32,549 nucleotides of DNA from Hydrurus foetidus (Eukaryota): NCBI GenBank assembly GCA_900617105.1, contig UYFQ01000567.1, forward strand, positions 1 through 32,549, read 5' to 3'. How positions within the stretch are numbered: the first letter of the stretch is position 1; each line of letters opens with the position of its first letter. Positions 2,856 through 32,549 of the stretch are shown here, one piece after another. The notes below the pieces were generated by a model, which saw only the letters and a program-made list of their open reading frames with translations, ran no database searches and was not told the DNA's origin. The position numbers were made by a program, and so were the translations under genes.

Positions 2856-3416
2856 TGTCTTCGTCTTCGCTACGATAATGGTCGGTAGTTTATTGAAGGG
2901 ACCGCGACGGAACTCGGACGCGGTGAATTCAGGGAGAGGAAGGATAGGTTGAACTTTTGTGAAGACTGGTAGGTGTAGAGTGGAGTAGTAGAAAAAGGAG
3001 GATTGGAATGGTTTGGTCAATTTCGGGAGGAAATTGACGAGAATTTCGGGAGGAAATTTCTCGGCGAGGCCTGCGGAGCGAGCAATCCCACGAACGGAGC
3101 GTTGCTAATGGGTCCTTAAGTAGCGCTTTCGATGCTGAAAGCTACTACTGGCGTGTCGGCTTTCGTGTGACGAAAGTTTTCGATGGGATTTCTTGATATC
3201 GCGAGAAATCGCTGAGATCGAGCTTCGTTAGGACGAAGAGATAGAGGCTGTCGCTTTGCGAATCAACTCTCTATATAGTCGAATAGACGTTTCTGTTACA
3301 GAAAGCTATTGACACTCTCTTTTCGCTTCGAAAATGAGTCGGGTAGCGGTGTGGGAAATCTTGATTTGGCAATCGGCTTTCGTCTTGAAAGGCTAGCTGA
3401 TTCCAAGTAAGCTTAC

Positions 3417-3640
3417 TGTGGTCTCACTGAGGCCTTGGCTGGAACGGGAAACCGGACGGCGGAGGGCAAAGGTGAAATGGCTGGGGAACGATGCTAAAAG
3501 ATAGCAATGTGATTAGCTTACAGATAAGCACAGCAGATATCACGCAACAAATCGTATGGATCGGATCGTCCTCGATCCGAACCGTGCGTACGTTTGTACC
3601 CGAACCCGGTATACCCGGTATACTCGGTGTACGGGTCACA
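3417..3640 (-). repeat. 5' LTR of Gypsy A (~224 bp, TGTGACC...GAGACCACA)
   Basis: TG...CA termini; shares CTGTAAG, TTTCCCGTTCCA and AGACCACA motifs with the LTR of B. The second LTR is outside the window. Confidence 0.75.
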
Positions 3641-4760
3641 GTGCTTGATGGTAACCTTGAGTGAGATCAAGTACAGCAAACACTTTTGCTTGATGTGCAC
3701 CTATTCTACGCAACATCTCACCGATGTGTGGAATAGGATGGTTTATTTTCGGTACAATTGTTGAGATTCCGAAAATCAATACACATGCGCTTAGTTCCAT
3801 CAGATTTAGGAACTAGTAAAACTTGGCTATAATAAGCCGCGTTTGATTTTTTAACAATGTTATGTTTTTCAAGTTTGTTAATCTGACTAAGAATGTCAGC
3901 TTGATCAACTGTTGATTTAGCCCATGGAGGTTGTCTATTTTTAGTGACTTTCCATTGGTCGTCATTGACATTAAAGTCAAAGGGTGGAATATCAGCAGGA
4001 GTGGCCGAAAGTTCACTGCTAAATACATCCTTGAATTCGTGTACTAGTAACCGAAGTTTATTTTTCTGATCTTCATTACCTGCTAAGTTTATTAGCGAGA
4101 GTAGGTCAGTATCAGGAAATTCATCTATCCAAGGTGAAAACGAGTCCTTGATCGAGTCGTCGATTTCGTCCTCATCAGGGGGCACAGCCTCAAAAAGTCT
4201 TTCAGACTCTTGTATTAGTGAAGCTAGAATAACATGTGTTTGGGTTACTGCCGGTTTCACCTTTTGGGTTAAAGGATCGACCTTTGGGGAGCCATCAGAG
4301 GGTTGCAACTTCTCCTTAGGCTGACAGCCACACGTTATATCCACTTGCTCAGAAGATAAAACTTCCGCTAATGAGGATGTGCTTGATGAAGCATTGGCAG
4401 ATATCTGATCGGGGAAACGTGAAAATAAATTCAATTCGCGAATTGTTTTTCGTCCCACTATTAGATCAAATTTCGAATCGTTTAAAACATAAGCCGTGAT
4501 TTGAAAAGTATAATAATTATTTAAATCAAGGCAAAAATAAGAAAGAGTTAAGTCTATAGTGTCAGAAATATCATAACAATGATTATCTAATCCACTACAA
4601 ACTTTACACAATTTCTTTGAAGAGTTAGAAACGAATTGTGTGAAATTATGATTAGTTATAATGCGGCGATGTATAAAGTTGCCAGCAAAAGAGCCGGTGT
4701 CCAGGAGAGTAAAGACTCTATTACTTTTTTCCAGCATAACCTCCTGTGAGAGGGAGATAC
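3641..4760 (-). CDS. pol: Pol of Gypsy B: aspartic protease plus N-terminal RT (truncated by insertion, frameshift near 3745)
   Basis: LLDTGSFAGNFI, VCSGLD, DLIVGR, RMCIDFRNLN and DLTQGYHQ motifs. Confidence 0.9.
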
Positions 4761-6233
4761 GAAGAAAGGAATAAGTTCTGGATCATCGGAAAGAATAGAT
4801 GATGAATTTAGGTTGCATAGTTGCTCACCTTTGTGTTTCTTCGCAGCGTTTGTCGAGTCTGCTGTTGAAGTAGCAGGTTTTGACGAAGAGGAAGACGAAG
4901 AGGAAGACGATGAAGAAGAGGTCGATGTCTTAGGTAAAGTTGGAATAAACTTAGCCTTTGAATCGACTTTCAACAACTGCTTATGACCCTCAGAGTTGAT
5001 ATAGGGTGCGTCTGTACTGTTATAGTACGGTGACGTAGTGTAGAAACACGTGGCGACGAAATGACCAAGTCTCCCACAACCTGTGCAGAGAGGTCTTTCG
5101 AATTTGTCAGACTTGTCTGACTGCACTGATTGTTCGCTCTCTCGTGGACGTTTTTTGATTTTGTCCTGAGAGGAACGAGCAGGAGCTTTGATTTGGCGAG
5201 AGTTATCACCATACAAAGGAGAGACATCAATGAACCGTAAGGCATCAATTGATTCTCGTAGCTTAGCAAGCTGCGCAAGCCATACGAATCGAAAGTCTTC
5301 GATTGTAATGAGTCTTGGCGTTGTATTGTTAAGACTTCGCTGTAACACTGCTCTCCAATTGATAGGTTCGACTTGCAACTTATCGATGAGAATTTTAGTA
5401 GCCTGAAGTTGGAGAGTGGGTGTTGCATCAGGGAATCCATCAACAATATCAGCTAAAAGCTGATCTGTCTTGTCTTCCACTGATTCATCCTTCAGGTCGA
5501 ATTGAAGTGCGACCTGAGAGACAGTTTCAATGAAACTCAGCTTGTCAGTTCGATTGACAGCTGATGTAGGAACTGTGAGATTTAGTTCTCTACAGAACAA
5601 TTGATTCGACCAATGTTTCCAATTGTTACAGGAGTCGCGACGATCGGGATCAGTTGCAAACTTACGCTTGAGAAGCGTTGTAAACGATTGATGGTTGGAA
5701 ACATGGACTACATCAACTGGTTTAAATGGAGTTCCATTTGAAAGGAGGACTTCCATTACCCGTAGTACTTCCTGACGAGAGGGCACGGCGCTCAACTTAG
5801 GAGCTCTCTCACCCGTCTGTACATATTGCTGGGGTGGTGACATCGTCCTTGGAATAGGATTCTCAGCAATAGCTGGTGTCGCGTTTGAATCTGGTATCGC
5901 AGCCGAAGCTGGTATCGCAGCCGAAGCTGGTATCGCAGCCGAAGCTGGTGTCGCAGCCGAAGCTGGTTGCAATGACAAAGCAGATAACGCCGAAATGACA
6001 GGAATATCAATGACAGACATGACCGCAGGCTCCGAATTCCGCTGAAGAATCGGTGCAGACAGGTCGCCGGCGGGGTCCTGAGCCGCAGGTGGCCCAGGAG
6101 ACTCTGCGTCTCCACTACGATTGTGATGGTCGTCATAACGTTGTCGGAACGCGACGGCTACAGCACGAGGTTGCTGCTTTCGCCGAAGGGCGTTGATGGA
6201 GGATGTCTTTTTGTCTTGGCGGCGTAGAGCCAT
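4656..6233 (-). CDS. gag: Gag of Gypsy B (predicted spliced form ends at TAA 4723-4721)
   Basis: 525-aa ORF, low-complexity N-terminus, CCHC knuckle, Ser-rich tail, directly upstream of pol. Confidence 0.8.
   Translation of the reverse strand: MALRRQDKKTSSINALRRKQQPRAVAVAFRQRYDDHHNRSGDAESPGPPAAQDPAGDLSAPILQRNSEPAVMSVIDIPVISALSALSLQPASAATPASAAIPASAAIPASAAIPDSNATPAIAENPIPRTMSPPQQYVQTGERAPKLSAVPSRQEVLRVMEVLLSNGTPFKPVDVVHVSNHQSFTTLLKRKFATDPDRRDSCNNWKHWSNQLFCRELNLTVPTSAVNRTDKLSFIETVSQVALQFDLKDESVEDKTDQLLADIVDGFPDATPTLQLQATKILIDKLQVEPINWRAVLQRSLNNTTPRLITIEDFRFVWLAQLAKLRESIDALRFIDVSPLYGDNSRQIKAPARSSQDKIKKRPRESEQSVQSDKSDKFERPLCTGCGRLGHFVATCFYTTSPYYNSTDAPYINSEGHKQLLKVDSKAKFIPTLPKTSTSSSSSSSSSSSSSKPATSTADSTNAAKKHKGEQLCNLNSSSILSDDPELIPFFVSPSHRRLCWKKVIESLLSWTPALLLATLYIAAL
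5891..5967. repeat. 18-bp minisatellite (~4 copies, ctggtatcgcagccgaag) in gag B, encoding PASAAT/PASAAI repeats
   Basis: Directly visible tandem array. Confidence 0.95.
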
Positions 6234-6337
6234 AATTTTGACGTGATGGTTTAAGTTGGAGGAGTCGAAGACAAAAAGTTGGAAAAGAGAAAGACCTTTC
6301 TCGGAGGAAGCTTCGGTAATTGACCGAATATCGATAT

Positions 6338-6598
6338 TGTGGTCTGACGGCGGGGCCTAGGACGGAAGGCGAAGTTGGAACGGGAAAAGGACGGAAGGCG
6401 TGGACAAGCGGACGTGGAGTCAAGGTGATAAAGACTTGTGTTAATATCTTACAGTTAAATAGATGAAGGTGATGTGTACGCTAAGAGCACTCACGTCATA
6501 TATGGAACTAAGACCTAAACTGGAATCTGGGCGTCATATACCTATTGTACCTAGTAAACCTAGACACATTGTATCCATAGGGATGCAATAAGGCTACA
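6338..6598 (-). repeat. 5' LTR of Gypsy B (~261 bp, TGTAGCC...CAGACCACA)
   Basis: TG...CA termini; begins where the MULE-like reading frame loses coherence; 3' half similar to LTR A. Confidence 0.75.
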
Positions 6599-7029: not shown

Positions 7030-7596
7030 AGTGAGGGTTGAAGGAATGAGGGTTGCAACGAAGTAATCTTTTCTAAGGAAATTTGAATAGATTACTCAGA
7101 TTCTGAAGATAACTTCCCAAGAAAAATTTGAGAACTACTGGAGATTTGAAGTGACTTACCGAGTATTGTTGCACAGTTGCAAGATTCTGGTGCTGCTTGA
7201 AGTAGATATACAGATTTTTTCACAAAAAAAGTCAACTTAAAATCAGTTTTTTTGGCAGAAAATTTCTACTGAATTTTTTTGGCGCGATTTCAGTTGTAAA
7301 AAATAATCCGATTCACTAGAATCTGTTATTCCGTCAATATATTCCGGGGTGCGTGCTCCAGATTAAAAAAGTCAAAGCACAATGGGTCCGTTTGGTAAAT
7401 TCGACGAAAAAAACGGCGTTTTTTCGAAATCACGATTAGGACTTCGGATCGAGATCTGAAAAATCGTGTTTTTTTCGATTTTCGAAAAACCCGTTTTACC
7501 AAACGGCCCTTTTTTTTGATGACCACCAGTTGCGAAAACTGAAATCCCACCTTTAACCTCATACGTGTTCATGCACAACACATAATAGAGTAAACG

Positions 7597-8766
7597 ATGT
7601 TCAATCCTGATGATGGTCTATTAAACCTTGAATTGCTGGTTGCTGTTGTTTTGGCAGCTGAGAATATTGACGGTGTGCATCCAGTCATCCAACACGACTC
7701 CGAGCTCACTGGTGCGAAGTACTTTAGTGAGCTCATGCGCACCGAAAATGTGAACCGATTTCATCAAGTTGCCAGAATGGATAAAGATACATTTAGTCTT
7801 CTACTTAATTTACTCATAGATGTTGGCGGATTGGTTAATTCGATGTACATAAGTGTGGGAGAGAAAGTCATGATATTAATTTATGTGCTAAGGGGGCATA
7901 CAAATCGTGAGACATGCGAGCGATGGCAACACAGCGGAGAAACAATATCGAAAATAGTTCATGAAGTAAGCGACGCCTTACTGGGATGTGGTTATGTTAT
8001 ATACAAACCAGCACAAGTTGGTGATCCAACACCGTCGCATATTTCCAATAGTGCTAAGTTTTCACCATATTTCAACGATTGTATTGGTGCTTTAGATGGG
8101 TCTCATATTCCTGCAATAATCCCCTTGGAGGATCAAGGCAGATACTTTAATCGGAAAAAATTTTTATCGCAGAATGTACTAGGTGTTGCAAATTTTGACT
8201 TATCGTTTGCATACGCTTTATATGGATGGGAAGGAACAGCTCATGATAGCAGAGTATTGGATGATGCCAAAAACAAAGGTCTACCACTTATACCTGGAAA
8301 GTACTACCTGGGTGATGCGGGGTACGGACTTAGTACCACCGTACTTACCCCCTATAGGGGTGTACGTTACCATTTACAGGAATTTGAAATCAACGGAAAT
8401 GGACCTGTCAACAGTAAGGAATTATTCAACTTAAGACATTCCTCATTACGCAATGTTGTAGAACGTATCTTCGGAATAGTAAAAGCTAGGTTTCCAGTAC
8501 TAAAAAAAATGAGCCCGTATGAGTTCGAATTTCAATGCGATATTGTGCAATGCTGTTTTTTACTGCATAATTTTGTTCACCTCAATCAAACATATGAAGA
8601 TCAATTCTATGATGAAGCTGGTAATTTTGTTGATAATGATATCGATGAAGACGTAGTTTATGAACCAGTAGAGGACGGTGTATACAATGCATTGAAGATA
8701 TGGCGCAATGGTATCGCGGAGGAGATGTGGGCTGATTATCTCGCATATATGGCACTAAATACCTAG
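7597..8766 (+). CDS. Harbinger transposase (DDE_Tnp_4, HARBI1-like)
   Basis: Motifs CIGALDGSHIP, GWEGTAHDSRV, YYLGDAGY and FNLRHSSLRNVVERIFG; intact 389-aa ORF. Confidence 0.95.
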   Translation: MFNPDDGLLNLELLVAVVLAAENIDGVHPVIQHDSELTGAKYFSELMRTENVNRFHQVARMDKDTFSLLLNLLIDVGGLVNSMYISVGEKVMILIYVLRGHTNRETCERWQHSGETISKIVHEVSDALLGCGYVIYKPAQVGDPTPSHISNSAKFSPYFNDCIGALDGSHIPAIIPLEDQGRYFNRKKFLSQNVLGVANFDLSFAYALYGWEGTAHDSRVLDDAKNKGLPLIPGKYYLGDAGYGLSTTVLTPYRGVRYHLQEFEINGNGPVNSKELFNLRHSSLRNVVERIFGIVKARFPVLKKMSPYEFEFQCDIVQCCFLLHNFVHLNQTYEDQFYDEAGNFVDNDIDEDVVYEPVEDGVYNALKIWRNGIAEEMWADYLAYMALNT

Positions 8767-9060
8767 GGAAAGGAACAATAAAATCTTTTTTTTTCGATAT
8801 ATCGAATTTAACATTAATCCTATTGATTTTTTGAGGTCATATCCTGACAGTTTTTTCGATTTATCTCATCAACCAGTGCTCTGATCGGGATTCTGAGCGT
8901 ATTTCCTGATCATAGTTAATTCTATTCATTATTCCAGTGGGGGGCTAAACTGATACCGGGGCAAAACTGATACCGCTCTGTACTATACTCCGCACAATCA
9001 ACTGACATACCAACCCTCACAACAACCAATTAGGACATCGCCGGCGTCGATCAGAACACC

Positions 9061-9549
9061 ATGGATGCAACAGTGCCAGTAGACGAAGATGCCTACAACC
9101 ACTGGATTGAATTTTCGGGCGGTTTGCCAACGCTTCAGCAGAAAAAATGGATAACAAGTAGAGTCTTGAACAAAATCGAGAGCGCGGCGGACATTGCAAA
9201 AAGATACAACATCCAAAGAAAGTATATCAATATCCTTGTTCAGAGGATGCGTAAAAGATCCTATCTCAGAATGCTGCCGGGCAGACCGCGAGTTCTTGAT
9301 GCTGAAAGCCAACAGAAAATTGAAACTTCCATCGTAGATATGACGTGCGAAAATGACGATCACCTTACCTCGGCAATCAAAGAGGAATTCCTTGCAACCC
9401 GCCTGAGATTGGGCAAAGTTGATGCAGCTGACGATAGTACTGACGTTGTTGATCCTGTTAAGATTTCGAGGAGATCACTAAAGCGCTATCTTATCCGCTT
9501 TCATCCTGGAGTATTTCAAACATTTGACGCGCACTCTGCTGTTGTCTGA
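9061..9549 (+). CDS. Stand-alone HTH protein homologous to the N-terminal DNA-binding region of the element's transposase
   Basis: QKKWI...IAKRYNIQRKYINILVQR...GRPRVLD...KISRRSLKRYL aligns by eye with EKVWL...LSGRYGISRKILNLWVNR...GRPKLFD...PISRRSIARYI. Confidence 0.8.
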   Translation: MDATVPVDEDAYNHWIEFSGGLPTLQQKKWITSRVLNKIESAADIAKRYNIQRKYINILVQRMRKRSYLRMLPGRPRVLDAESQQKIETSIVDMTCENDDHLTSAIKEEFLATRLRLGKVDAADDSTDVVDPVKISRRSLKRYLIRFHPGVFQTFDAHSAVV

Positions 9550-9606
9550 AGATGAAGCTCAAACTGTTCATATTGATTCTGAATTATCCGTTTATTTACA
9601 AATAGA

Positions 9607-11381
9607 TTAAATATCTTCTACTGCTACTACTCCTACATTTTTTGCTCTTTTGTTCGGCTTGGGGTTCTGCTTCTTTAACTCTGCATCTGCTTTGCGCTTG
9701 ACAGCTTTGGCAACCTTCTCTGTCTCGAGTGCTTCTTTCGCCAGCTTCTTGTCGTCCTCACTAGCGATAAATGCGCAGTTAGTTAGGAATACAAATCTTC
9801 GACGGTTGAGGACGAGATCATCAATGCATCTACCATTTGCCCTGGACATGTTGTCCATATCTAAGCGTTCCATGTCCTTCATAGACAACTCCCCATTGGT
9901 CTTCATCTGATTGCAAAGGAATGGCATGTGCTCCCAAACTCTCGTGATCTCATCAGTAGTGAAAGCAGTTTTGCACTGACCCAAAATTTTCTCAACATCG
10001 CATCCCCCGCCCTTTCTGTCGAACTGGCCGCACGTACTGAATGAGTCGGTAATTGTGTCTGATCTTAAAGTTGACTGAATTATATGTTTCACTACCTGCA
10101 GTCCCTCTGCTATTGCTTTCACATGCGCCGCAGACATTTTCTTCCCAACGAAAGTTTCATGCAGCTTGATGAAGTTTTTGTGACGCTCGGTAGATTTGGA
10201 AATCAGTATATCCTTGATATTCTTAAGTCCCTTTTTTTTGTTTTGGATGCCATAAAACATGTCCCAACATCGCACGGCTGGTAGATTGAGGTTGTAGAGG
10301 CAGGCAACTTCCCAATGACGATATTGTGTTCTAAGCACATGTTGGCAACCTCAGTGGTTCTCAGCGGCTTGATCTGAACATCCTCCCCATCAAGTGTAAA
10401 ATAAGCTGGTGTCGTCAGAGGTATTTGATTTAGTATCCTTATGTCAGTGACAAACTTGATGAAGACACTTGAGAACCACCATCTATAGAACTCCTGGTTG
10501 ACGCTTCGAGTTTTAGAAAATACTACCCAACCAGTCGACAGTATATCAGTCCCGATTCCCAGACCGGATACCTCATGGTAGTCTATTGTCCCCTCCACCA
10601 TGTTGTCGTCAGCAATTATGTAAACAGGAGGAGCAGAGACACCCATAGCAGTGATACACATATAGAACTTGATGAAAAATGCTGTCAAGGTAGACCCTTT
10701 CACTGCCATGACTTTCAACGGTCCTTTCTTCTCAACCCTCTCTAGTGGGTCATAGAGAACCTGAACCTTGTCTGTTAGGCCACCCGAAGTTTGATATGAA
10801 GTCCCATCGGCATTGATCGCTAGATCAGGAACCGTCAAAGGCATCATCAAGAAGTGCGCCACAGCGACGGTAACAGCATTGAGCTTATCCGAAGTAGCGA
10901 GAGCTCTTGCGTCGGTGGTCTGCTCCGCATTACCGACTTTGAGACCGATGGCATCAATGTAACGTGCTATGGACCTCCGTGAGATAGGCTTGACCGATGA
11001 TCCAGCAACAGCTTTTGTTTTGACGACTGCTTTCACGTGCTCTGACTGTAAATTGCGAACGAAATCTGATTTTACTGTGTTGTGAATATTGCCCGAAACA
11101 GACGATCTCAGTTCTGCTTTCGCGGGAGAATCAAATAATTTTGGTCTGCCAGCATCGTGCACCTTTCCATTCTTTGAGAATCTGTTAACCCAAAGATTCA
11201 ATATTTTCCTGGAAATGCCATAGCGTCCAGAGAGTTCTGGTGAAGATACTCCATGATAGAAGATCTCATGAATAAGCCAAACTTTCTCAGCTGTCGAGAT
11301 TGAATTCGATTTTAATTTTGGTGTCCGTCTCCCCCAAGGACTAGGGAGCCTCTCGGGAGTCGATGGCGGAGAAGTTGACAT
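9607..11381 (-). CDS. pogo-like (DDE_1-type) transposase, ~591 aa, one frameshift at the A8 run near 10232-10239
   Basis: N-terminal HTH plus GRPK; catalytic motifs INADGT, TLDGE and LPASTTSIYQPCDVG (39 residues between the 2nd and 3rd Asp); ORFs 10203-11381 and 9607-10338 overlap. Confidence 0.85.
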
Positions 11382-11605
11382 TTCACCGCGATGTCCTAAT
11401 TGGTTGTTGTGAGGGTTGGTATGTCAGTTGATTGTGCGGAGTATAGTACAGAGCGGTATCAGTTTTGCCCCGGTATCAGTTTAGCCCCCCACTGGTATTC
11501 CCGACTTAGACGAATTGACTCCGTGTGGAAGAAAAAAAACCAGATTCGGTCCAAGGTTTTTTTTAAAAATTACGACCCCTCAAAATTTTATCCGGGCCTC
11601 CGTAC

Positions 11606-12585
11606 TTATTTGCCCTCTAGGGCATCTAACTTACTCTTTATGAACAGAGTTTGCTGCGCATCAGTGAATGATAAGAACTGATTGACATATGAGGAATTGT
11701 CTGCTAACAAGCCTATGAAGTCCATCTCTTTTTGCATGTCTAACAGTTCAGAGTGCTTATCTTTTAAAATACTAACAGCCTTATCGAATGGAGATAGCCT
11801 ATTCTGGTAAGTATCCTGATTTGACACTATCTTTGAGAGCAATTCATGAACTAAACTGACAGGCTTGGATTTTACCACTCTTACAAACGGTCGCACTGTC
11901 TTCAGCTCTTTTGCAACTCTGTCGACATTGCTTACTTGGGTTACTTCCACCTCACTGATGTCATCTTCATCCACCGGCACCCTTTTCCTGTGGCTTGATG
12001 CTGAATCAAGCGAAGGCGCTTCCAAATCCACCACGGCTGGAGAAAGGAAATCCACAGAGACGCTTGGAGCAGATTGACGAGGGGTCATAGGAGCCCTAGC
12101 AAATCGACCAGTTGCTGAATCCGCTGTGTATTAGGGAAGTACAAATATTAGCATATAAAACGAGTATTAATGTGTATTTAAGATTACTTACGTCCAAATA
12201 ATGCCGTTAATTCGTTAAAAAACATCAATGGTCCATCGGCAAACTCAGCAGCTTTTGGATGGCTAGCATAATACTCGTTTAATGCTTCTGGGGCACCAGT
12301 GACCATACCACTTGCATCCATCCCAAAACCACTTTGGTTTGCATACTTTGTGAACTCAAGGTATTTCTTCTTCAAAGAAAAACATTGAGTTTTAAGCATC
12401 TCTTTGTTATACTCTAAACCTGTCCTGATTTTGAACTCGTCAGCTATGATCTGCCAAGCAGTCTTGTCGTTAGACAAGTTTGCAAATCTGCCGGCAGAAT
12501 GCTTCGTCAGTAGGTCGATCAGAACTTTGCGGTTCATGTTCGACCACTTCGCCACGTCCTTTTTCTTGAAGGACGTCGACATCAT
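11606..12585 (-). CDS. Harbinger Myb/SANT-like DNA-binding protein; exons 12585-12192 and 12123-11606
   Basis: Trp-spaced Myb/SANT-like region (KWSNMNRKVLIDLL...AWQIIADEF...LKKKY); GTAAGT...CTAAT...CAG intron 12191-12124 joins the two ORFs in frame (LFGP-DSATGRFA). Confidence 0.9.
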
Positions 12586-12842
12586 TATGCTATATTGTGT
12601 AGTATGTAGTGCATAAACGATGGTTGCTACGACAGTTACCTCGATATTTTTGAACCAGGATGATCGGGTCCCAGACGATTCGAGGGGAAAGCTCTTTCTC
12701 GTGGAATCGCGATTTCTCGAAAAAAAATCGGTTTCAGAAATTTACCAAACACCGGATTTGAAAAAATTGAGAAATTTCAAAAAAACGGGGGGAAATCTCG
12801 TGGGATCGCGATTTTTCGGTTTACCAAACGCACCCAATAGCT

Positions 12843-13035
12843 CAAGGGTCGTGTTTAATGCATTTGTCGTTTTCAATCGGGTACCAGCCCCGCACACAAC
12901 AACACACAGCATTTTTCATGCTGGGCGGTCCCCCTGGGGAATGTTTTATTTTTCAGTCATGAAAAATGCTGTGTGTTGTTGTGTGGGGGGCTGGTACCCG
13001 ATTAAAAACGACAAATGCATTAAACACGACCCTTG
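12843..13035. mobile_element. 193-bp foldback MITE with ~78-bp TIRs
   Basis: 12843-12920 is the reverse complement of 12958-13035 with about 2 mismatches; AGCT on both flanks. Confidence 0.85.
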
Positions 13036-13152
13036 AGCTCCCACGCAGGTTCTGTCTCGATGATACTATATCTACTACATATTCATATTCATATTCATAA
13101 TCTCTTCATTCATATCCTCTGCTCAACTTTGTGAGGCACGAGAGTCTACACA

Positions 13153-14380
13153 ATGGCACTACGGATTTCGGAAGCCGTTCTCTCTGGAGTAAGCACATGG
13201 AGGGATTTTGAACTCCATAAAATCAAAGAAACTCTAGAGCATAATAACCACCAACGTGAAATTAATCTTATGAAGAAGCACCACGCAACGGAAGAAAATT
13301 TATCGAAAAGAATATATCTAGTCGAGAAGTATACTGAAATAGAGCAGCATTTTCAACAGTTGAATGCCGATCTCCTGACCGTCAGCAAAGAAAGCGGTTA
13401 GACAATATATGTCACAACTACTCTGTATTAACTGAACTTCGTCATTTTGATGAGAATTTTCATCCCGAAAACTTCACAGAACGCGACATGTTCGATCAGA
13501 GAAATCAGCAATTTTCGACCATCCTAGTTGCTACCACGATTGTTCTTTCTGGCAAGTCCTGTGATGTATTCGACCAGAACATATTCTCAACCCGTCGCAT
13601 GATGACTAATTCCTTGTCGTCACTCTCTCAGGTCTCATAACAGTCCTTATCCAAGGGGTTCTGCCAAATGGAACAAGTGAATTCCTTCAGATCGTGTATG
13701 CAATATCAAACAGCGGGTCTATGGCATTACTATTCATTTGCTCAGTTCTGTGTTTAGAAGTCATTTGGAGGGCAAGTCAATTTATGTACAAACGATCGAA
13801 GGTGCACACTTGCGATCTCGGAAATGCGATCAAAAAAACGAAGCAAATGATGACCAAAGTGCGTGGGATCAAAGCGTACGAGATGGCAAGCATTGACCGT
13901 CCCAGTTCTCGAAGACACATATCAGGAATGAGCGATGCGGAAATACTCGACGAGTTCGCTCAGCATGAAAGTGAGATTCAGCGCTACCTGCAGCAGCGAC
14001 AAAAAATTATTGATAAGGCAGCCTACATGGTTTTCTCGGAGGATGGTACCAGCATCGATAAGGAATCATTCTCACATTTTTGGCGCGATTCTTGTGGGTA
14101 TTACAGCAATGCAGCAATTCTATTTTTCTATGGTGGGAGTGCTCTACTATTCGTTGCTACAATGACCTATATGTGGGCAAGATTCGACTATGCTCTACTG
14201 AGCCCCATTGCAGCCAAAGTCTCAGTCTACCTCATATCCTTCGCCTTATTGGCTTCTCTAATCCTGGTAGTATATCTGAGATACTACGACAGGCAATACC
14301 TGAAGAGCAAAACGAAATTTGAGAGCGACAACAGAAAAGCAGAATTACTCCTGAATTTGGCTGAAAGGGACATGAAATGA
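13153..14380 (+). CDS. Host multi-pass (about 4 TM) membrane protein; exons 13153-13396, 13480-13551, 13632-14380
   Basis: Phase-consistent introns (GT-AG 13397-13479; GC-AG 13552-13631) give a continuous frame with a coiled N-terminus and four hydrophobic helices. Confidence 0.8.
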
Positions 14381-15992: not shown

Positions 15993-17566
15993 ATGACACC
16001 CGAAGATATCCTATTGAATCAGGTGAGAAGCAATAAAGAGCAAGGAACTCAGGCATCTGCAAAGGACTTTTGAATTATCCATCACCACAGAGATTTCACC
16101 AGGAAAGCGAGATTCGCGGCTTCAGCATGAGCTCTCCAGCCTCCCCATACGCCGGTAGGACCACCGCAACTGCAATAATTGTCATTAAATTACTCTAATT
16201 CTGTTCTGTCGATGTTTGCATCTGACAAAGCACCGAATTCTCCGATCGCGTCATCGAAGAGACCTCGAGCCCCAGTCACTGTCGGTACGTCGAATGTTAC
16301 TGGCGAAATCGCGAGATCATTCACAAAATCTGACGTATTAAATCGAACAGTTGATGAAAGTTTGACATTTTGCTACTTCTAAACATCCTTTTACAGATTT
16401 GAGATCTCCCGGGAAGCCTCAGTCGCAACCGAGGTTCTACTGTCTTCAATCAATCTCAGATCCATCGCTCAATTATCTGTGTCAGCTCTGCATCCTCCAT
16501 CCTCTGATATCATATACCCACCAATGAAGGGAAATCGTTGGGACAACAGCTGCCTCAAGACGGATAAGTGGAAGCACAGATGAGACTCGCGTCGCTGGTG
16601 TACTGTTTTCTCCAGCCCTTAAAGACGATGCCGACGATAGTTTTGAAGGAGCCCACGCCGATGGAGCAGATGAAGAAGTTGATAATGAAGATGATGAAGA
16701 TGACGTGTTCAATCCATATCTATTTATAGCTGGTTTGCCCCCTCATTCAAGCGTCGTTATCAAGGACAAGATATGTCTTCCGCCTCTACCAAAGAATGGA
16801 ACACACCGCACTACCCTAGCCCTTGACCTAGACGAAACGCTGGTCCATTGCACTGTCGAACCGATTACCAAACCAGACCTTACCTTTGTGGTGACATTCA
16901 ACGGTACCATGTATCAAGTTTATGTGAGGAAGCGACCATATCTCGACTACTTTCTCGACTTAGTTTCCAAAAGCTTCGAGGTGAGTTTCTTAATCGTATC
17001 CCTGTAGATTTGCAAAGAATTCTTTCTTGACCTAACGCCTATAACTACCGACGCTGATTGGTCTTCACAACACATTACGTTCCGTTCTATTGACTAGGTC
17101 GTCATATTCACAGCATCTCAAAAAGTTTATGCCGATGTTCTTCTGGATCTCCTAGACCCCGAGAAAAAGCTCATAGGACACAGACTGTTCCGTGACAGCT
17201 GTCTGTTCGTTCAGGGTAACTATTTGAAGGATCTCACTGTTCTGGGGCGCGACATGAAAAAGGTAAATCGTCTATCACGCGACTGTTTCTACTACCCACC
17301 CTAACGATAATACTGTACTGTCGCAGTCGATACTCGTGGACAACTCCCCACACGCTTACGGCTATGATTTAGACAACGGGGTCCCTATTGAGTCTTGGTT
17401 TGATGATCCCTCAGATACCGAACTCTTGAAGTTAGCGGGGTTTTTACAAGGCGTAACAGATGTAGACGATGTCAGGCCGATTATTAAGAACCATTTCAAA
17501 TCCTATGAATTAGTGCATAACGCCACCCTCGGGTTCGCCACAGTCACCACTGCACCACCATTCTAA
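15993..17566 (+). CDS. SCP/CTD small phosphatase-like HAD phosphatase (NIF domain, CTDSPL2-like); exons 15993-16022, 16091-16154, 16231-16284, 16397-16433, 16530-16980, 17098-17262, 17327-17566
   Basis: DLDETLVH (DxDxT/V), YVRKRP, IFTAS, RLFRDSC, YLKDL and VDNSP motifs; all six GT-AG introns phase-consistent. The first exon is less certain (alternative ATG at 16127). Confidence 0.9.
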
Positions 17567-19112: not shown

Positions 19113-19526
<414 letters not shown>

Positions 19527-19598
19527 CACCCTCATGCTACAACACATTTGTTCGCAGTTTGATAATCAAGCATTTGTTGTCTACTAATACTTAATATT

Positions 19599-22500
19599 CT
19601 AAGCTAAGTCTTTGTCGGGCCACCCAGTGACTCCGTGTCTCTCCAATCTGAATTGTCCCCCCTGAAGCGGCTTCGTCAACATGTTAGCGTACATGTCCTT
19701 CGTCCCGAGGTGCACCACCCTTGCCTCTCCCATGTCCACCCACTCCTTCAGCCAAAAGTATCTGATGGAAATATGTCTTGTGCGCTCCGCCGCTGACCGC
19801 CCGCGGTCTATGAGAGCCATGCATGACATGTTGTCTTGATAGATCGTAACCGGCGCGCACGCGTGTCCTTGCCCTATGATGAAATTTCTCACGTGTAAAG
19901 CTTGGTTAGATGAGTCGGACAGTGCGACCAGCTCTGCCTCCGTGCTTGACTTCGTCACGATCTGCTGCTTCACGGACTTGCAATGTACTGCACCCCTTTC
20001 TCCCACCACAACGCAGCTCCCAGTGTGTGATCTCCCATCGGGATGTACCCCGAACGCAGCATCGATCAGGACACTCACGGCTATTCCCTTCGCTCCCGGT
20101 GCGAGCACTATGCCTCGGTCTCTGGTCGCCCATACATATCTCATCAGACGGTCCAACTTGGTCAGGTCGTCCGTGGTGCACTTGGTCACTCTGGTGGCGA
20201 GGAAAGCTACTGCTGTCAGGCAGTCCGGTCTCGTTCTCTTCGCTAAGTATAGCATCTTCGCTACTCGGCGATGGAAGATCACTCTCTCTTCCTCGCTCGC
20301 GTTTTCGATGTCCGGCCTCACATCGAATAGTCCCTCGGTCGCGGGAGTCTGCGCACCCTTGGCTGTCCCCGCCTCCTTCAGCATATCGTCCACGTAACCT
20401 GTCATTGAAACTTTGGCTACACCCTGCGAGGTTAAGTCAAACACCATCCCAAGGTAGTTCACTACAGGTCCGTCTTTCCTTGTTATATCTCCATACCTAA
20501 TGACCAGTCCCTCTGCAAGTGCTTCGATCATGTCTGCATCGGTGCTCGTGATCATCAAGTCGTCCACGTGGACAGCTATGGTGCATTGCACCCCGAGTGG
20601 GTTCCTTTTGTTGAACACGCATATGTCGATCGCATTGGGAGTGTACCCTAGACCGTGTAGACTCGCCTTCAGGTTCTCGTACCAGAGCGCCGCGGATTCC
20701 ACGCATCCGTATAGTGCCTTGTCTAGTCTCACTACGACGCACCCTCTGTCATTCATGTACCTCGAGTAGTGTGGTGCAAGCTTTGTCATCATCCCTGTCA
20801 TGTTCTTGTCTAAACGCATATGCACGGCAAGCCCGGCGTTCATGTCCGCGTTGAGGTATGCACCGCTGATGTCTATGACCGTCACCCTACGACCCTCGTG
20901 TGCCGCGATGCATAACAGAGTGAATACTGAGCTGGTCCCCACTGTCGGAGCGGACAAGTCATCGTAGAGTGTCTTGTCTTGTTGGTCTCCGCCCGCGACG
21001 AGCCTCGCCTTGAGTTTCTCGAATTCACCGCTGGCTAGGAATTTCTCTTTGAGGAACATGCTCGATCGGATGATGCGCGCCTTCTCCTCTCTCGGGAGTC
21101 TCTGTTTGTCCACTGGCGTCCATACTTTCTTTTTGATCATTTGCCCGAGCTCTTTGAGTATCACGCTCTCGGCTTCTTTCCCTCTCGTGCGCAGTGCCTC
21201 ATTCACTGAGATGTTCAACACGTATTCCTTCCAGTCGCCACCTACGGAGTTATAGTTACGAGTGAGTAGCGCAGCTCCATGTTTGTCGCCTCTAAACATG
21301 TCCATCAGTTTCTGTCTGGGCAACACTAGATGTCCTACGCTGGAGTATCTCTCTGCCGCCTCGGTTGCCTCCTCCATAATTCCGAGGTCTATCGCTCCGT
21401 TCTCTCCGTAGTCCTCAGGCACTCCCTGTTCATCACCGTATTCCACTCGCACTGCATCTGGACTCCCTACTTCAAGTTGTCTGAAGCTGCTCAGCAGATC
21501 GTCCATGTCAACCACCCTAGGCTCTATCCTTACTCTTGGTGTCGGTATCATATCGTCCGCGTAGTTCGACTCCTCACTGTAAGGTTCCTCCTCGTGCGCA
21601 TCGAGCGCGATATTCATCTCTTGGTCTGCTTCAACGTATATGAGCTCTTGCTCGTGACTCTCATCCATGAGCGACACCGCTGGATCTACCCCGTTGTTAA
21701 CCTCAGTCTGAATTGTCTCAGGTAGACCGTTTCTCATCTCACCGTCTTGCTCGAACCTAACAATGCGTTTCTCTAACTCACCCTTTCCTTTGACCCTACC
21801 ATCTGCTAGTTCAAGCTCATTTAGTTTCTTGTAACGGACTCTGGCATGGGCATAATAATGAATTGGTCCCTGTTCACTACCTTCCCGGTCGCTAAAGACA
21901 GCATTCGTACGGTCCCCGTACAGTTCCCTAATGGCAATATTACTACGCAGTCCTCGGTTCGCAGTTTTAGAGTCGCGTCGGTGTTCGGCACTGTACATTG
22001 AACATAGTCGCCGAATGAATAGCGGAATTCTCTTTTGCCGTCTGGTTTCCTCCCTATGAAGGCCTCCCTCGGGCTAGGGCCCCATTCCCGTTCTCCGTAC
22101 GGTTCGTAGTTCACCCTAGAAACTACGTACATTACGCACATAGCAATACCCACACTCGATAATGTGAAAGGCAGAATGTATACATGTGAACGTAACCTTT
22201 CTTTGATAACTCGAATCCTTCGTTCGATTCTAGCGACGTGGCCGCCCGCTCCACTGACATCGACATCTACTCCGAGCTTCCCTAGTTCGTCGACCAGAGT
22301 GATCACAGCTCCCTCTCCATCGCTCATGATCACCGAGGTCTTAAATCCTTGGGATCCTAGCACTCCTAGAAAATGGGCTATTCCTTTCCTCACGTGCTCT
22401 GCTGACCTGGTCGACTTCTTGAGCACTAGGTTGTTTAGACTATATGCTATAGTTAGTCCTAGAGGAGTCGCTAGGCCGATTAGAATAGCAATTTTGTCAA

Positions 22501-24421
22501 TAAACATAATGTCGATTGCCAGCACCTGATCCTTTTGGACTATTTTCGCTTTCACCGATATGTCGGCCGTAGGAGTAGCATGTTTCGTGGTCTTCCCTTT
22601 GATGGAGGCAATGTCCTTCCTCCAAATGGCTTCTGCGATCTCAAAATCTCTCGCCGAGATATCAAAGTTGCTCCCGGAGTTCACGATCGACATCGCTGTC
22701 CCGACGGTCGGGAATCCCATTCTGCCCATTAGCTCGCGCGCCGATCTCGCACGGTTGATTTCCCTCTTTGTCAATGCTTTCAGGTTCTGATTCACTGTGG
22801 TTACCATAGCTGTCTCTGCCTCGACGGTCCTCCAATCACAGGAGTAGAACCTCCCGCCGCTACCAGGTATAGTTTTACGACCGAACTTATACACGTTGCT
22901 GCTCCCCCTTGGTTGTAACGTGAAGACGTCTTCCTCGTGGTCATATCGAATGATTGCTCCTGCATCCACTTGTGTCGCAAAGGATAGGACGTTGGCTGAT
23001 GATTCTCCGCTGTAGAATACTGTTCCAAACTCTCCGAAATCTCCTTCGTTGTCGACTGTAACTCCCCCTCCAGCTTGAATGCCGCTGACTTTGATCGACT
23101 GCTCTGACTTGCGTATCCTAGAGAGCTGATTCTTGTTGCTGAAAATGTTTAATGAGGCTTCGTTGTCGAGAAGTACATCGTACTGTGTGAACATGCACCT
23201 TTCATTCAATGCAACAAGTGCAATCCCCCACTCGCCTTCTCCACTCTCATCGTCACTGTCAGGTTCAGCCTTCGATACGTGGACTTTCTCTCCTTTCGAC
23301 TTTCTGTTGGGACAGTTTCTCGCGTAGTGACCTTTTTCTTCGCAGGTGTAACACTCCACTTCGGTTAGTGGCTTCTTTCTGGTACCTCCGGTTTTCCCGG
23401 CTGCCTTCTCGGTGTCTTTCGACAAGGTGATGTGGACTTCTTCGGTAACGAGTGCGACCCCGGGTGTGTGAGGCGGGTCCTTGGGTGCTCCCCCATCTAT
23501 TCCCTGATAGCGTGAGGCTATGCTGTATGCCCTTGCGAGTGCGCTGGGGTAGGCGTCGGCCTTGTGTCTAGCGGCGTCGTTGTTCATGTCTTGAGTCATT
23601 TTACGGTATCGCTTAGGGTCAAGCTTCCCGAGGAAGTCTAGTGCACGTCGTGAGTCTGTGACTTTGTCGGCTCCGACTGCATCATTAGCTAGCACCTGTT
23701 CGTCGAATCGTGCTTTAAATGTATGTATGAGCTCTCTCTCACCTTGTCTCATCGCACCGTACTTACTCTCTTGTTCGTGCCTGTTCACTTCTTTCATCGG
23801 GTCTGAGTCACCATACATGTGGGTGAGGTGAGTTTTCCGAATGAGTGTCCACAGTAGTACACAGTTCAGTGTCATGTACGCTGTTCTGTACTCCTCCTCT
23901 TCTTTCACTCTGTTCTGTGAGCTCGGCGACATTCTCTTCCACATCATCGGGTAGACGGTACGTTCGCTCTCCTTCTGAGTTTTGAGGTCTCTTTGCCTCT
24001 GGATGTAATCCTCTTCTCGATATTTCGCTCGTGAGCGTTCTGCGGCATTTCGTCGCCTTTCGTTTCGAACCTCCCTCGCGGCGGCTCTTGCTGGTTTACC
24101 CGCGGTGTGCGCTAGGAGTGCCGCTGTCTCAGCAGCTGTAGGTGCAACTACGTGCTCTTGTTCTTCGTCTTCGTCAGCTGGAGCATCTGGCTCCGATTCT
24201 GACATCGAGTCTTCTGACGACGAGGCGTCTGGGTAGTGAAGGATTGTCCTTGGTAGTTCGTATCTCACATCTGTTGTGAAGAACATACCGACTATGCCGC
24301 ATAGTTCTGTGACTATAGTCTGCATACTCTCTCTCCACTTTATAGTGTTGTTGAATTTGCCATATTGAAGGATGCACTCCTCAGTGCTTTTCGAAGCTTC
24401 AACGGCGCGTTTGGGAGGCAT
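19599..24421 (-). CDS. Copia gag-pol polyprotein with one frameshift near 21830
   Basis: CYTCEEKGHYARNC; LLDNEAS; integrase DIMF/SDGEG/IERRIR; RT KARLVAGG, LDKALYG, VHVDDL; RNase H IDAAFG, STEAEL, YQDN, ANMLTKPL. Confidence 0.93.
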
Positions 24422-24446
24422 GACAATGCCAACGCCTGTCAAATTA

Positions 24447-24671
24447 TGTTGGAGAACCTCTTCGTTCCGAGCACCCTAGATCGGAACGTGGACCTGTGGT
24501 CTGGAGGTTCGATTACCAAGGCTTGTGAAATGAGACGCTTGTTGCCAATAATCACTCGTTAGTTTGACTGTGCTGAATCCCTGTCTACAGCCCCGAGTCC
24601 CTTTCAACGCAACAACAAATCAAACCTACACTACACTTGAAGTACGGTGTTCTGCTCAGGCCCATACATCT

Positions 24672-24712
<41 letters not shown>

Positions 24713-24784
24713 TAATCCGTACGTCCGTACGAATGCATAAGTACACATAATGTGTTCGTGTCATGAACTCAGATATATCCAATA
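24447..24784 (-). repeat. Copia 5' LTR (338 bp) containing (CA)18
   Basis: Matches the other LTR except for microsatellite length and about 2 substitutions, one in the terminal dinucleotide. Confidence 0.95.
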
Positions 24785-24786
24785 TA

Positions 24787-25148
24787 CGGGCTGGTAGCGC
24801 CAAGAAGCAGGAATTTTTTTCGTTTTGACACTTCTTTTTTTCTGTCGAACGGTTTCTCATTTGTGATTGCTCAAAAGAACCGAAATCATCTCTGCTACAC
24901 CCCCACGCTTTTCGCTTGTTTTCAAAATTCGTATTTCGTGAACTTTTACCCTTTTTACCCAAAATAGCATGACTTTTGAGCACTATGGTGCACAATAACA
25001 ATTTACCAGCGTATTTAAATGCCAAGCAAATTACACGGCCTTGTATGAACGATTTTTCGACATCTTTCCATCCGTTTAGTTTTTCCTGGAGTGTTCCAGA
25101 AAAAAACATGAAATAAGGAATTTTACGTTTCTTGGCGCTACCAGCCTG
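24787..25148. mobile_element. Tc1/mariner-type MITE (362 bp, TA flanks)
   Basis: TA-CGGGCTGGTAGCGCCAAGAA ... TTCTTGGCGCTACCAGCCTG-TA inverted termini; AT-rich non-coding interior. Confidence 0.85.
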
Positions 25149-28085: not shown

Positions 28086-28434
28086 CCGATTATCTGCGTG
28101 GAGAATCTCGAATTTTATTCGAAATTCTCGTTTACGAGCAATTCTTACTATCGCGAGCAAGTCTCCGAAGTCTGGTCGCCGTAAACATAGTCACTCGGTA
28201 TCTCCCGATACTTGACTATTTCGTGGTTGCTTGAGTTTCATCTCAACAATCCCATACCGATTACCTGCGTGGAGAATCTCGAATTTCATTCGACATTCTC
28301 GTTTGCGAGCAATTCTTACTATCGCGAGCAAGTCTCCGAAGTCTGGTTGCCGTAAACTTAGTCACTCGGGTTGAGATTTCTCTCCCGATACTTGACTGTC
28401 TTGTGGTTGCTTGAGTGTCATCTCAGCAAACCCA
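28086..28434. repeat. Tandem duplication (~170-180 bp unit) in the Gypsy C leader
   Basis: Two copies of ccgatta.ctgcgtggagaatctcgaattt...cgagcaattcttactatcgcgagcaagtctccgaagtctgg...catctca. Confidence 0.92.
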
Positions 28435-28734
28435 AATTTTTGTGCAGAGTTAACTCCGTTAACTTCTGCCCATCTCTCGCCGCAAGCTTTGCTTGGCTGA
28501 CGTCCGTGGATAGCTTTGTCTTCCACGCCGTTCTCGTTATTGGTCGAGCAAGTCTCCCAATCCCGACTTATTTTGTACGGATTGATTCACTCATCCGTCC
28601 AGAACCTGCTTGACTTATTGTGCTTCGCCTAATCGCCTGTTTGATTTTCATCCAAACGGCACGAGGCGAAGCCCTTGCAAAATTTTTTTGGCGACCCCGC
28701 TATTTAAAATTGTCAAGACATAAGTCATCTAACG

Positions 28735-31700
28735 ATGCCGTTATCCGATGACTCTTCGGAGATATCGCCGTCGCTCGCCGAATTAACCACTCAATTAATT
28801 CCGGCAGCGACGACTGTTTCAAAAACTCAGTCGACACCAACACCGCCGACAGCAGTAGCTGCGTCTGATGGAACTGATCGACCGGTATTCCCAGTAACAA
28901 TACTGGGACCTACCAACAGTTCCAATCAGGCGCCGCCTAATCGTCATATCGACGACGACGACGACGTTCACACAACGCGACAACATGACAATGTCACGTT
29001 GCGTTCGTCAGACGCTAACCGTCAACAAACACGCCATAATGGCAACCCTGACCGGGATGATGACGACGGCGATACTAACCCTCGCCGCCGTATAGATTCA
29101 CCCCCGCAACGATATCTCCGTCGTCGGGGCCTCGACAGTTACGACAACTCAACTCGTCGGAATAACCCCGTCGAAGGAGATGCAACGGGCGACTATCCGC
29201 CCACTCCGAATCAACAGAGTGGCAGCGAAGACGGTGATGACGGTAATCGTTACGATAACCGTCAACGCCACGATCCTAACCAACGTCAATACAATGACGA
29301 TAATCGCAACAACAACGATTATCGACGTTCTAATGATGACAATCAAGGTCACAACGACAGTCGTCGTAACTACGATGACTCCAACCCTCCCAGGGACAAC
29401 CGTAATACGGGCCCTCCATACGGTACGGAGCACCGTAACGACGTTCGTTACGATAACGAGGGACGTCAATATAACGATGATCGCCGCAATGACAACCAAC
29501 GTCAAAGCGATAATCGTCGTTATAACGACAATTACCGTCAGAATGACGACAACCACGACTACGACAACGATGGTCGTCGCGGCTACGACACCCCATTCAA
29601 CGACGACAACAGACGTCAATACGACGATCGACGCAACAGCGACAATCGTCGCAACGACGACAACCCACGTCAGAATGACGGGCGTCGCGATCACGACTAT
29701 CGCCAACAAGACGACAACCCTAACAGGGATAATCGCAGAGACACTTTCCAACGTCACAACGATAACCCCCAAAGGGATAATCGTAATTACGAGGATTCTC
29801 GTCGTAATGACAACCCAAACAGGGGAAATTATTCGACTAACACTCGCAGTTTCGATAATTCTCGCGACGACAACAACGACAGTTTCCGTCAGGGAGACAA
29901 CAACCCCAATAGGAGAAGTCGTCGAGAACCTCCACAGGGTTACGATGACAGTCCCCCAAGGGATTATCCTCAAGGAGACAATCGTCGCCAACAGGATACC
30001 TCCAACCGGGGCAACCGTAATACTGACGGTCGTCAGTACAACGACAACCAGTACGAGGACGAACGTGCGACTCCACGGGCAACCGTACGCGTTACCGACA
30101 ACTCTCGACTACTCGAGAGTCGCGATACGCGCATCCCCGAAAATGTGGAGACAATAACCCGCACAGCGGACGTTCCTCGCAAACGCGCGTCACCTCCACA
30201 AGAGGGTCCCATATCACGCAAGCGACAAGCTTCCCCACCAGGGTCACCGGAACGGCCTACATACGTACGTACGTTCACCGGTGACACGGATTACAACCCA
30301 CAACCCCAACGAGTCATCCAGGAGATCCCACGGGAAATTCGGGTTCCTAACCCACTCCCCTTGGATCCTCCAGAAATCGTGATACTGCCTGCAACAGCTC
30401 GCGTAATCGATTACGAGCAGCAAACAGCAGCATTCCGAGCTGCAGGGGGCGGTCCCGACCCCAATGCAGCGCACCCGGTACGACCACCGATACCACGGTA
30501 CATACACGATCGTACGTCACCGATCAACGTACCCGCGGTACAGTTTGCCACACCCAATGCGGCACCTACAGCGCTTGTAGTGGGTGGCCGTGCTGTGGAC
30601 GATGGTTCCCGACCCATCTCCGCTATTGCTTTGCAAACGGTGCTTTACGTTCTCAACGTAAATGCGTCAGGCATTATTGGACAAGAGGCAGCACGGGAGT
30701 TTTTCGAACACTCCCAGAGGTGGACCAACAACTACGATGTTGGTCAAGTCATCTCGACTAAAGCAGTCAGGTGTATCGATGATCAGATCCATACGGATCA
30801 AGATTATCCATATGCGGAAGAGACACGTAAAGTGTGGCTCCAGACGCTGACGGTCCCTCAAGTAGCACAATTAGTCCTGCGCTACTTTCGCGCGGACACA
30901 CAGCTAGGACAGTCACTAGCTGAGCATTTCTCGGAAGTCCATCTCGCCTTTTGCTACAACAAAAGGGAGATTGAGATGCGCTGCATGACACAGTTTCGTG
31001 AGGTGGTGGAGAACCATGTACAAGTACATGGCCCACTCAGCACCTCCGACCATGCTGCACTCACTCTCATCTTCGAGAAAAAGATGCCTCTTAACGGTGC
31101 CATCACCGCCAAATACAAAGAGCATAAACGCGTCAATCCCGCATGACGTGGACGATTGGGAATTCGCGATGCGTCGCTTTTTCTCCCAAGTCAATGCGGT
31201 ACGCCAACTTCAGCTACACGTAGCGGCTTTTGGGGACCCCAACGACATTTATTGTCACCCCGCTACCCAAAACCCATACGGGTTGTCTCTCACGACGAAC
31301 CCCAAAACCCTGTTGGTTGGTGCGGCACTCCCAGCTTTACCACCGCTGGCACTGCCAACAACACCACTCCGACAGTGTAACTCGTGTGGACATATGGACC
31401 ATCTGCTGAAAAATTGCCCACACATGTGGATGGTGGATTCAAACACCAACCACAATGTTCCGTGGGACCACTCCAACATGGGTCGCACGTGGGCACAATA
31501 CGGTCATGCGACCTACCCTATCAATGATCGCATCCCTGGTCTGGGCCGCTTTAAAATCCACATACCCCGTCGTGAAACAAATTTCACTGATGAGGTACTG
31601 AATAAAACTCAGCCCCCAGGGGGTGGTCAAAGAAAAAATACCAAGGGAACCCCAATCATGGGGGAACTATAATCGAGGTCCACCAACAAACCGCGATACG

Positions 31701-32044
31701 GTTCTGGTGGACAAAACACCACGTTGGCCAACAACACCTCCATCAACGCAACCCACAGTGGTCTACCGCCCGCAGCCGCATATGATGGTACGTTACCTCA
31801 TGTCACGGTGGTGGAGTCCTTGGTAGTGGCGATACATGCTACTAACACATGTACACCTACCGATACACCACCACCTTTATGTATACTCAACTCTGATATA
31901 CTTGTAACGAATACATTGGAGGTCTCAACCCCTCCAATACAGTATCGGATAACACTAACAATGTTCTTCCACATGTCTTCACGTGTTACAGCCACCCCAT
32001 ACCTCCCTGCCTCTAATCTCGGAGGTGCTGGCGGCATGCCATAA
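28735..32044 (+). CDS. gag: Gag of Gypsy C with a long N/D/R/Q-rich disordered region; frameshifts near 31140 and 31650-31700
   Basis: 803-aa ORF continuing in ORF 30998-31672 (knuckle) and ORF 31724-32044. Confidence 0.72.
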
Positions 32045-32054
32045 CCAGACCGAC

Positions 32055-32549
32055 ATGTCGGCAATACCGCTCATAGGTACGTTACCGTCTGACTCACTTG
32101 TAGCAGCGGTACACTCAACACATCCTAATGAACTTCTTTCATTATTGGTGTTCAAGGATGAACGAAGAACCTTGCAGGGACACGCCCCCACCACAGTCGC
32201 GTCAGCACCCAGGTCCACGGGACTTAGTCTTACAGCGCACGCGCTCCTAGACACGGGTAGCATGGCCGGCGATTTTGTTTCCAAATCACTGCTTGTCTCA
32301 CTTGATGCACTTGCTCATTGTTATGTGTCTTCAACAGCACTTAACGTTTGTAGCGGTCTTGATGGAACTTGTTATAGGTGTAATACCTTAGTCGATTTAG
32401 GCCTTACTTTTTTCGATGATAGTAATATTAAGCACACTATCTATATCACTTTTAGTGTTAATCCTTTTGCACAATTGGATCTGATCATCGGACGCAAGTC
32501 CCTGAATCAACACAACTTGTTTGTGCTGACGCCGAAACGTATGGGCTTA
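32055..32549 (+). CDS. pol: Aspartic protease region of Gypsy C pol (open to window end; absent from the ORF track)
   Basis: Manual translation: MSAIPLIGTLP...AHALLDTGSMAGDFVSK...VCSGLDGTC...LDLIIGRKSLNQHNLF. Confidence 0.88.
   Translation, partial: MSAIPLIGTLPSDSLVAAVHSTHPNELLSLLVFKDERRTLQGHAPTTVASAPRSTGLSLTAHALLDTGSMAGDFVSKSLLVSLDALAHCYVSSTALNVCSGLDGTCYRCNTLVDLGLTFFDDSNIKHTIYITFSVNPFAQLDLIIGRKSLNQHNLFVLTPKRMGL

Follow-up and report, generated by a model that had tools for sequence, protein, structure and literature searches.

Many Gypsy retrotransposons have one Gag-Pol open reading frame (ORF) without a frameshift, and the source of their Gag excess is unclear. An answer by splicing is in print for Copia elements; here we describe one in a Gypsy lineage, where it has a clear DNA signature. 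BARE1, a Ty1/Copia element of barley, has an optional intron of 104 nt at the end of gag (PMC3735527). In EVD, a Ty1/Copia element of Arabidopsis, splicing yields a Gag-only mRNA (shGAG) and the unspliced RNA encodes Gag-Pol (PMC5580714; reviewed in PMC12786077 and PMC7730604). PMC5580714 reports having found no conserved splicing of this kind among the Ty3/Gypsy elements of Arabidopsis. Ogre and CRR are Ty3/Gypsy elements that are spliced by the host (PMC3735527, PMC6317226). For chromoviruses, the strategies described are a -1 frameshift, stop read-through or a single ORF, and the available text names no Gag-ending intron (bioRxiv 10.1101/2022.12.06.519325). Our literature search covered papers outside subscription journals and found no Gypsy element with a Gag-ending intron; none was described in the accessible portions of the Yarrowia literature.

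The window analyzed here is a stretch of 32,549 nt of DNA that holds three Gypsy-like fragments (A, B and C). Their lineage resembles BARE1 in having a single ORF and a small alternative intron at the Gag/protease border, the splicing of which causes a frameshift, a stop and a Gag-only RNA. Unlike BARE1, a Copia element whose sister BARE2 lacks the signals, it is Gypsy, with a chromodomain in relatives, and the intron is kept across about 12 divergent groups. It also differs from BARE1 in that the lineage intron codes for the first predicted strand of the protease, with an overprinted Gag tail after it, and in that the probable working intron of C lies further upstream. EVD and Drosophila copia have conserved splice sites around the protease that give a Gag-only mRNA, with unspliced RNA as Gag-Pol message, and the lineage is similar in this respect. 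However, those introns measure about 300 nt or 3 kb and excise the protease domain or most of pol, and EVD-type splicing in Arabidopsis is coupled to early polyadenylation. The logic of Ogre and CRR is the reverse: Ogre removes an intron between Gag-protease and reverse transcriptase (RT) to allow Pol and CRR removes rt, whereas splicing in the present lineage blocks all of Pol, protease included. With Tf1/sushi and plant chromoviruses the lineage shares Gypsy order and an integrase chromodomain, and some of these are also single-ORF elements (bioRxiv 10.1101/2022.12.06.519325).

Gypsy-like elements in the window

The window is eukaryotic DNA rich in transposons. Besides the three Gypsy-like fragments it holds two Copia elements, DDE transposons and an NIF-type phosphatase gene whose predicted introns are short. 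The fragments and the main coding features of C are:

184-3104, minus strand: Gypsy-like fragment A
about 3700-6356, minus strand: Gypsy-like fragment B
28735 to the window end, plus strand: Gypsy-like fragment C, truncated inside the protease by the window end
28735-31146, plus strand: N-terminal part of C Gag (long low-complexity region, then likely capsid), within ORF 28708-31146
31376-31417, plus strand: Gag zinc knuckle C-X2-C-X4-H-X4-C, found by eye in frame 30989-31672, with no Pfam hit
32250-32258, plus strand: catalytic DTG of the aspartic protease, L-x-D-T being conserved in the protein alignment

The N-terminal part of C Gag is homologous, as judged by eye, to the N-terminal part of protein P0143. 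Pfam gave no match in ten Gag and protease frames of the three elements. In the window, C is a decayed copy, with Gag stops at 31144-31146 and 31670-31672 and a further frame change before 32044. Many other copies carry single-base differences at these Gag breaks, including near 31137-31138 in the run contigs over 30400-32549. Three homologs of C (P0047, P0050 and P0052) have one frame from the Gag tail into the protease, which indicates that intact copies of C have one ORF across the region. A close homolog of C, P0056, aligns to the related locus L002 from the protease to the start of RT (E 6e-28). The fold of the leader at 28640-28720 was not unusual (z -0.29), and the 3' half of C lies outside the window. 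Runs with at least half of the sampled words of C were labeled as organism A or B, or as biofilm, sediment, air and freshwater metagenomes.

Other features were recorded along the window. C Gag has an Asp/Asn/Arg/Gln-rich repeat region of about 300 residues at 29150-30080 (plus strand), where two other frames are each open for more than 300 codons, and the leader or LTR of C has tandem repeats of 113 and 54 nt at 28086-28434 (plus strand). A Copia element at 19113-24787 (minus strand) has near-identical terminal repeats, each with a (CA)n tract whose length differs from that in the other. The DNA transposon at 8931-11498 has 111-nt terminal inverted repeats that are 99% complementary; of its several ORFs, which lie on both strands, one matches DDE_1 weakly. 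It apparently interrupts another element, presumably PIF/Harbinger-like, in which an 82-nt inverted repeat adjoins a DDE_Tnp_4 transposase and a Myb/SANT ORF (7594-8766, plus strand, and 12184-13039). A predicted membrane-protein gene at 13153-14380, with no Pfam match above the cut-off, has a likely GC-AG host intron of 80 nt at 13552-13631 (plus strand).

The Gag/protease border across the lineage

Fifteen related loci (L001-L015) were fetched and read by a fixed rule: a hydrophobic strand, the first in-frame NAG, and the best phase-1 GT 74-140 nt upstream. The rule found a unit in L002-L012, L015, A and C. The sites of L013 and the donor of L014 were set by eye after the blind rule failed. 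L001 was dropped, as it had no signature and the sequence upstream of its motif was not in frame.

In 14 of the 15 relatives and in A and B, a phase-1 GT donor lies 80-134 nt before a CAG that follows the first predicted protease strand; these 16 elements represent about 12 groups (some loci are near-identical, and B was outside the matrix) with shared ancestry, and their counts are not independent. The donor of A and B is GTGAG, with the CAG directly after the strand. The acceptor codon was CAG in 16/16 (L002-L015, A and B), compared to 179 of 559 other Gln codons (32%). GTRAGT donors were present in 7/16, against 2.1% of 843 control positions, and a CTRAY branch motif in 11 of 14 loci, against 156/1108 controls. 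The first stop of the spliced frame fell 13-37 nt before the catalytic Asp in all 16 elements, and exactly 19 nt before it in nine. Since the rule fixes the phases, a 3n+2 length is a given and does not count as separate evidence. Donors were weak in L004-L006, L012 and L014. The residues encoded at the donor vary (C, S, G, R) while the GT is kept, which points to a constraint on the DNA.

At the protein level, 58 of the 65 proteins with sufficient upstream sequence could be anchored, and in 36 of these a Gln followed the strand at a distance of no more than five residues, over a background of 15%. The donor pattern in proteins was non-discriminating (25/29 against a background of 69%, and 4/29 against 5%). 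The two Copia elements of the window had no such signature before the protease.

Each of L002-L006 consists of one ORF, 1754-2031 aa long. L002, L003 and P0111 contain RT, RNase H, integrase and a chromodomain (PF00385 above the cut-off), in the Gypsy order PR-RT-RNaseH-IN. The relatives have RT before integrase and therefore lack the Copia order, integrase before RT. The lineage works like BARE1/EVD-type Copia elements, but for this reason is not a member of that group. By protein clustering, P0111 falls with eukaryotic RT clusters whose members come from different phyla, and two scans of viral contigs found no relatives. L007-L015 are retrotransposon contigs filed inside bacterial metagenome-assembled genomes, and are likely eukaryotic contamination of bacterial bins.

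In this Gypsy lineage the intron doubles as protease-coding sequence and the loop after it is dual-coding. At the DNA level, most members of the lineage have their first predicted protease strand encoded by the intron, and the loop downstream can be read in two frames, one for the protease and one for a putative short, often basic Gag tail that stops before the catalytic motif. The signature can be screened for in any genome: a phase-1 GT, a 3n+2 length, a CAG after the first strand, and a stop about 19 nt before DTG. The initial annotation, made from this DNA alone, had argued from A, B and C for a conserved mechanism, and the relatives bear this out. Together with the exact absence of the B intron from one contig, described below, they make a lineage-wide splicing mechanism well supported.

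The mechanism that we propose starts from one Gag-Pol frame with a small intron at the Gag/protease border that can be read in frame. Its removal would shift the frame and end translation at Gag. Spliced RNA would likely supply the Gag excess needed for particle assembly, with the splice rate setting the ratio, and the Gag made from it would end in a short tail that is often basic. RNA left unspliced would act as both Gag-Pol mRNA and genome.

Spliced joints in elements B and C

Element C was surveyed over 30400-32549 in four runs (X1, X2, X18 and X20). X1 gave 13,935 contigs and X2 8,075, kind unrecorded and probably DNA; X18 gave three and the RNA run X20 six. The candidate introns and stops of all three elements are:

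496-629, minus strand: predicted intron of A, GTGAGT...CAG, 134 nt (3n+2), with 58 further residues before the spliced frame stops
4744-4828, minus strand: intron of B, GTGAGC...CAG, 85 nt in the window and 86 nt in most copies
31788-31991, plus strand: intron of C spliced in RNA (X20 contig), with phase-1 GTACGT donor, CTAAC branch motif at 31955-31959 and CAG acceptor
32042-32044, plus strand, spliced frame: TAA at which Gag would stop, 17 residues past the 31787/31992 junction
32077-32156, plus strand: 80-nt unit of C at the lineage-wide intron position, with GTACGT donor, CCTAAT branch motif and AAG acceptor
32159-32161, plus strand: TGA reached at once if the 80-nt unit is spliced, 91 nt before the catalytic Asp codon
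32225-32227, plus strand: second stop of that spliced frame, 25 nt before the Asp codon, at the place typical of the lineage

In C, one X20 contig joins 31786 to 31991. It skips 204 nt with GT..AG ends (cut +1), at a depth of 3.8 and with 87 letters on the short side, and the CTAAC motif lies 32 nt before the CAG acceptor. The joint was not found in X1, X2 or X18, of which X18 covers no junction. The initial annotation had overlooked this set of donor, branch motif and acceptor and had proposed the 80-nt unit instead, which the sole spliced RNA contig does not use: it runs unbroken to 32117, 41 nt past the 32077 donor, which it keeps. RNA cover is minimal, and 32117-32189 is uncovered and therefore uninformative. 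Contigs drop rare forms. With a single contig and rare forms lost, the upstream intron is shown, and the downstream one is argued against weakly. Splicing of 31788-31991 was thus shown once in the C sub-clade, which has a longer linker; as the joint has a depth of 3.8 and comes from a metatranscriptome, its source may be a related copy or organism. The intron measures 204 nt in the window, and some copies have extra bases at 31928 and 31968. Copies with both would have an intron of 206 nt (3n+2) and would read through into Pol.

In B, one X2 contig joins 4742 to 4828, skipping 85 nt with CT..AC ends (cut +1) at a depth of 689.6. The joint matches exactly the intron predicted beforehand; it has only 26 letters on the short side and the flag 'between: not known', and the kind of run X2 is not recorded. 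X2 and X18 have one extra base behind 4751, giving 86 nt, and the X18 contig is unspliced B with this extra base. Diverged single contigs in X2 have depths of about 85-154, so that 689.6 would correspond to about five to eight intron-less genomic copies of B if X2 is DNA, and these would likely have been made from spliced RNA. If X2 is RNA, the joint is splicing itself. The B result suggests an occasional return of spliced RNA, by copying, to the genome.

For A, no joint was found at the predicted intron in four runs over 1-5800, and no listed RNA piece spans it, a gap in cover that carries no weight against the intron. The region 310-495 (minus strand) of A encodes a Thr/Ala-rich insertion in the protease loop, as is also present in P0137, P0157 and P0187. 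Read in the other frame, this stretch would give a Gag tail of 58 residues rich in Asp, Asn and Arg, so that the loop in A is likely dual-coding.

Exact intron removal was therefore observed in one contig each for B and C, and with it the trait of BARE1/EVD-type elements, an optional intron that makes a stop at the Gag end.

Two candidate introns in element C

The motifs of the 80-nt unit are where the initial annotation placed them: ATAG/GTACGT with the donor G at 32077, CCTAAT at 32124-32129 and an AAG ending at 32156, for a phase-1 intron of 80 nt (3n+2) whose splicing in C leads immediately to the TGA at 32159-32161. Its claim of in-frame retention holds from 31959 to the protease (Asp codon 32250); upstream it fails, with Gag broken before 32077. 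The likeness to host introns extends to size (64-117 nt in four introns that are sequence predictions) and not to acceptors, which are TAG or CAG in all four; a fifth, doubtful host candidate at 16434-16529 ends in AAG. A, B and C do share the position and phase of the intron, as claimed, and differ in outcome: only C stops at once, while by sequence reading the spliced frame of A has another 58 residues and that of B another 7-8 before a stop. A 32076/32157 joint, the proposed check, was absent from the four runs, in which only one RNA contig covered the donor.

The two strands of the window together hold 13 instances of a composite of donor, branch motif and AG of this kind, so that the motif alone is weak evidence. 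The weight of 32077-32156 comes from its position directly after the first predicted protease strand. At this position AAG is found in C alone, in 1 of 17 elements, the rest having CAG. Compared with a major-spliceosome (U2-type) intron, the unit shows the GT donor, the branch motif and the pyrimidine tract, with AAG in place of the YAG acceptor. The TGA of C is premature, 91 nt before the Asp codon compared to 13-37 nt in all 16 other elements, and the stop at 32225-32227 is likely the old Gag stop. Because of its AAG acceptor and premature stop, the unit in C is likely vestigial or secondary. Our interpretation, which we hold to be probable, is that C belongs to a Gypsy lineage with a Gag-ending intron at the Gag/protease border, that it splices 31788-31991, and that 32077-32156 likely marks the ancestral position in weakened form.

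Relatives of C were compared at the four splice sites. This comparison was made on protein residues, and at the upstream donor (31788) G, R or S followed by T was present in 8/8 clade sequences covering the site, while the upstream acceptor (31991) had Gln in 10/10 members within an otherwise variable linker. At the downstream donor (32077) Gly was nearly invariant, and the downstream acceptor (32156) had K in eight, Q in two and T in one of 11 sequences. The near-invariance of Gly and the K or Q in 10/11 suggest that 32077-32156 may still work. It is distinctly unlikely, in our judgment, that 31788-31991 works in tandem with 32077-32156 as a second intron in the C clade, or that a single donor there serves two acceptors, so that loss of either intron would end Gag and Pol would come only from RNA retaining both. 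The second unit does retain a good donor, a branch motif 27 nt upstream of the acceptor and a pyrimidine share of 0.69, equal to that of 31788-31991; P0143 has residues compatible with all four sites, a 31788-32156 splice would also stop at once, and RNA cover is thin. Against this, the second donor is still present in the RNA contig that lacks the first intron, the AAG acceptor is unique among the 17 elements, an AG is impossible at the second acceptor of P0064, and both P0064 and P0070 have Gly-Ala at the second donor.

Were 32077-32156 instead the main Gag-terminating intron of C, and 31788-31991 cryptic or minor, the match of the former to the lineage in position, phase, size (80-134 nt) and downstream stop at 32225 would be explained. 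We regard this as very improbable, since the only RNA joint is the other intron, the acceptor is AAG, and Gln is constant at the upstream acceptor in a variable linker. Least credible is that protein sequence or a ribosomal frameshift site gives rise to the splice-like signals as a by-product, and that the joints reflect deletions in the genome or dead copies undergoing stray splicing: pyrimidine-rich codons do encode hydrophobic strands, two thirds of random splices shift the frame, several unrelated deletion joints also occur in X2 and the composite motif recurs in the window, but the synonymous CAG bias, the GTRAGT enrichment, the fixed stop position, the exact GT..AG ends at both joints and the lack of a signature in the two Copia elements have already largely refuted this for the lineage.

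Under our preferred reading, with 31788-31991 as the working intron, the splice sites of C have likely turned over within a mobile element. A longer linker, perhaps formed by duplication of the donor end, would have brought a new intron, and the old one at 32077-32156 would then have decayed downstream of the new Gag stop. We also considered a broader proposal, speculative and on balance unlikely, in which single-ORF chromovirus-type Gypsy elements of microbial eukaryotes would widely set Gag:Pol by an intron that also codes for the first protease strand, convergently with Copia, and the C clade would have duplicated it into a two-intron gate that gives Pol only if both are retained.

The evidence for a donor-end duplication in C is suggestive only. 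With the donor included, its score was reached in 4/1000 dinucleotide shuffles and 0/336 windows; with the donor left out, in 68/1000 shuffles and 10/338 windows, and a looser test gave 0/500. A search with residues 300-547 of P0143 matched only P0143 itself, and this protein has a visible repeat at the linker.
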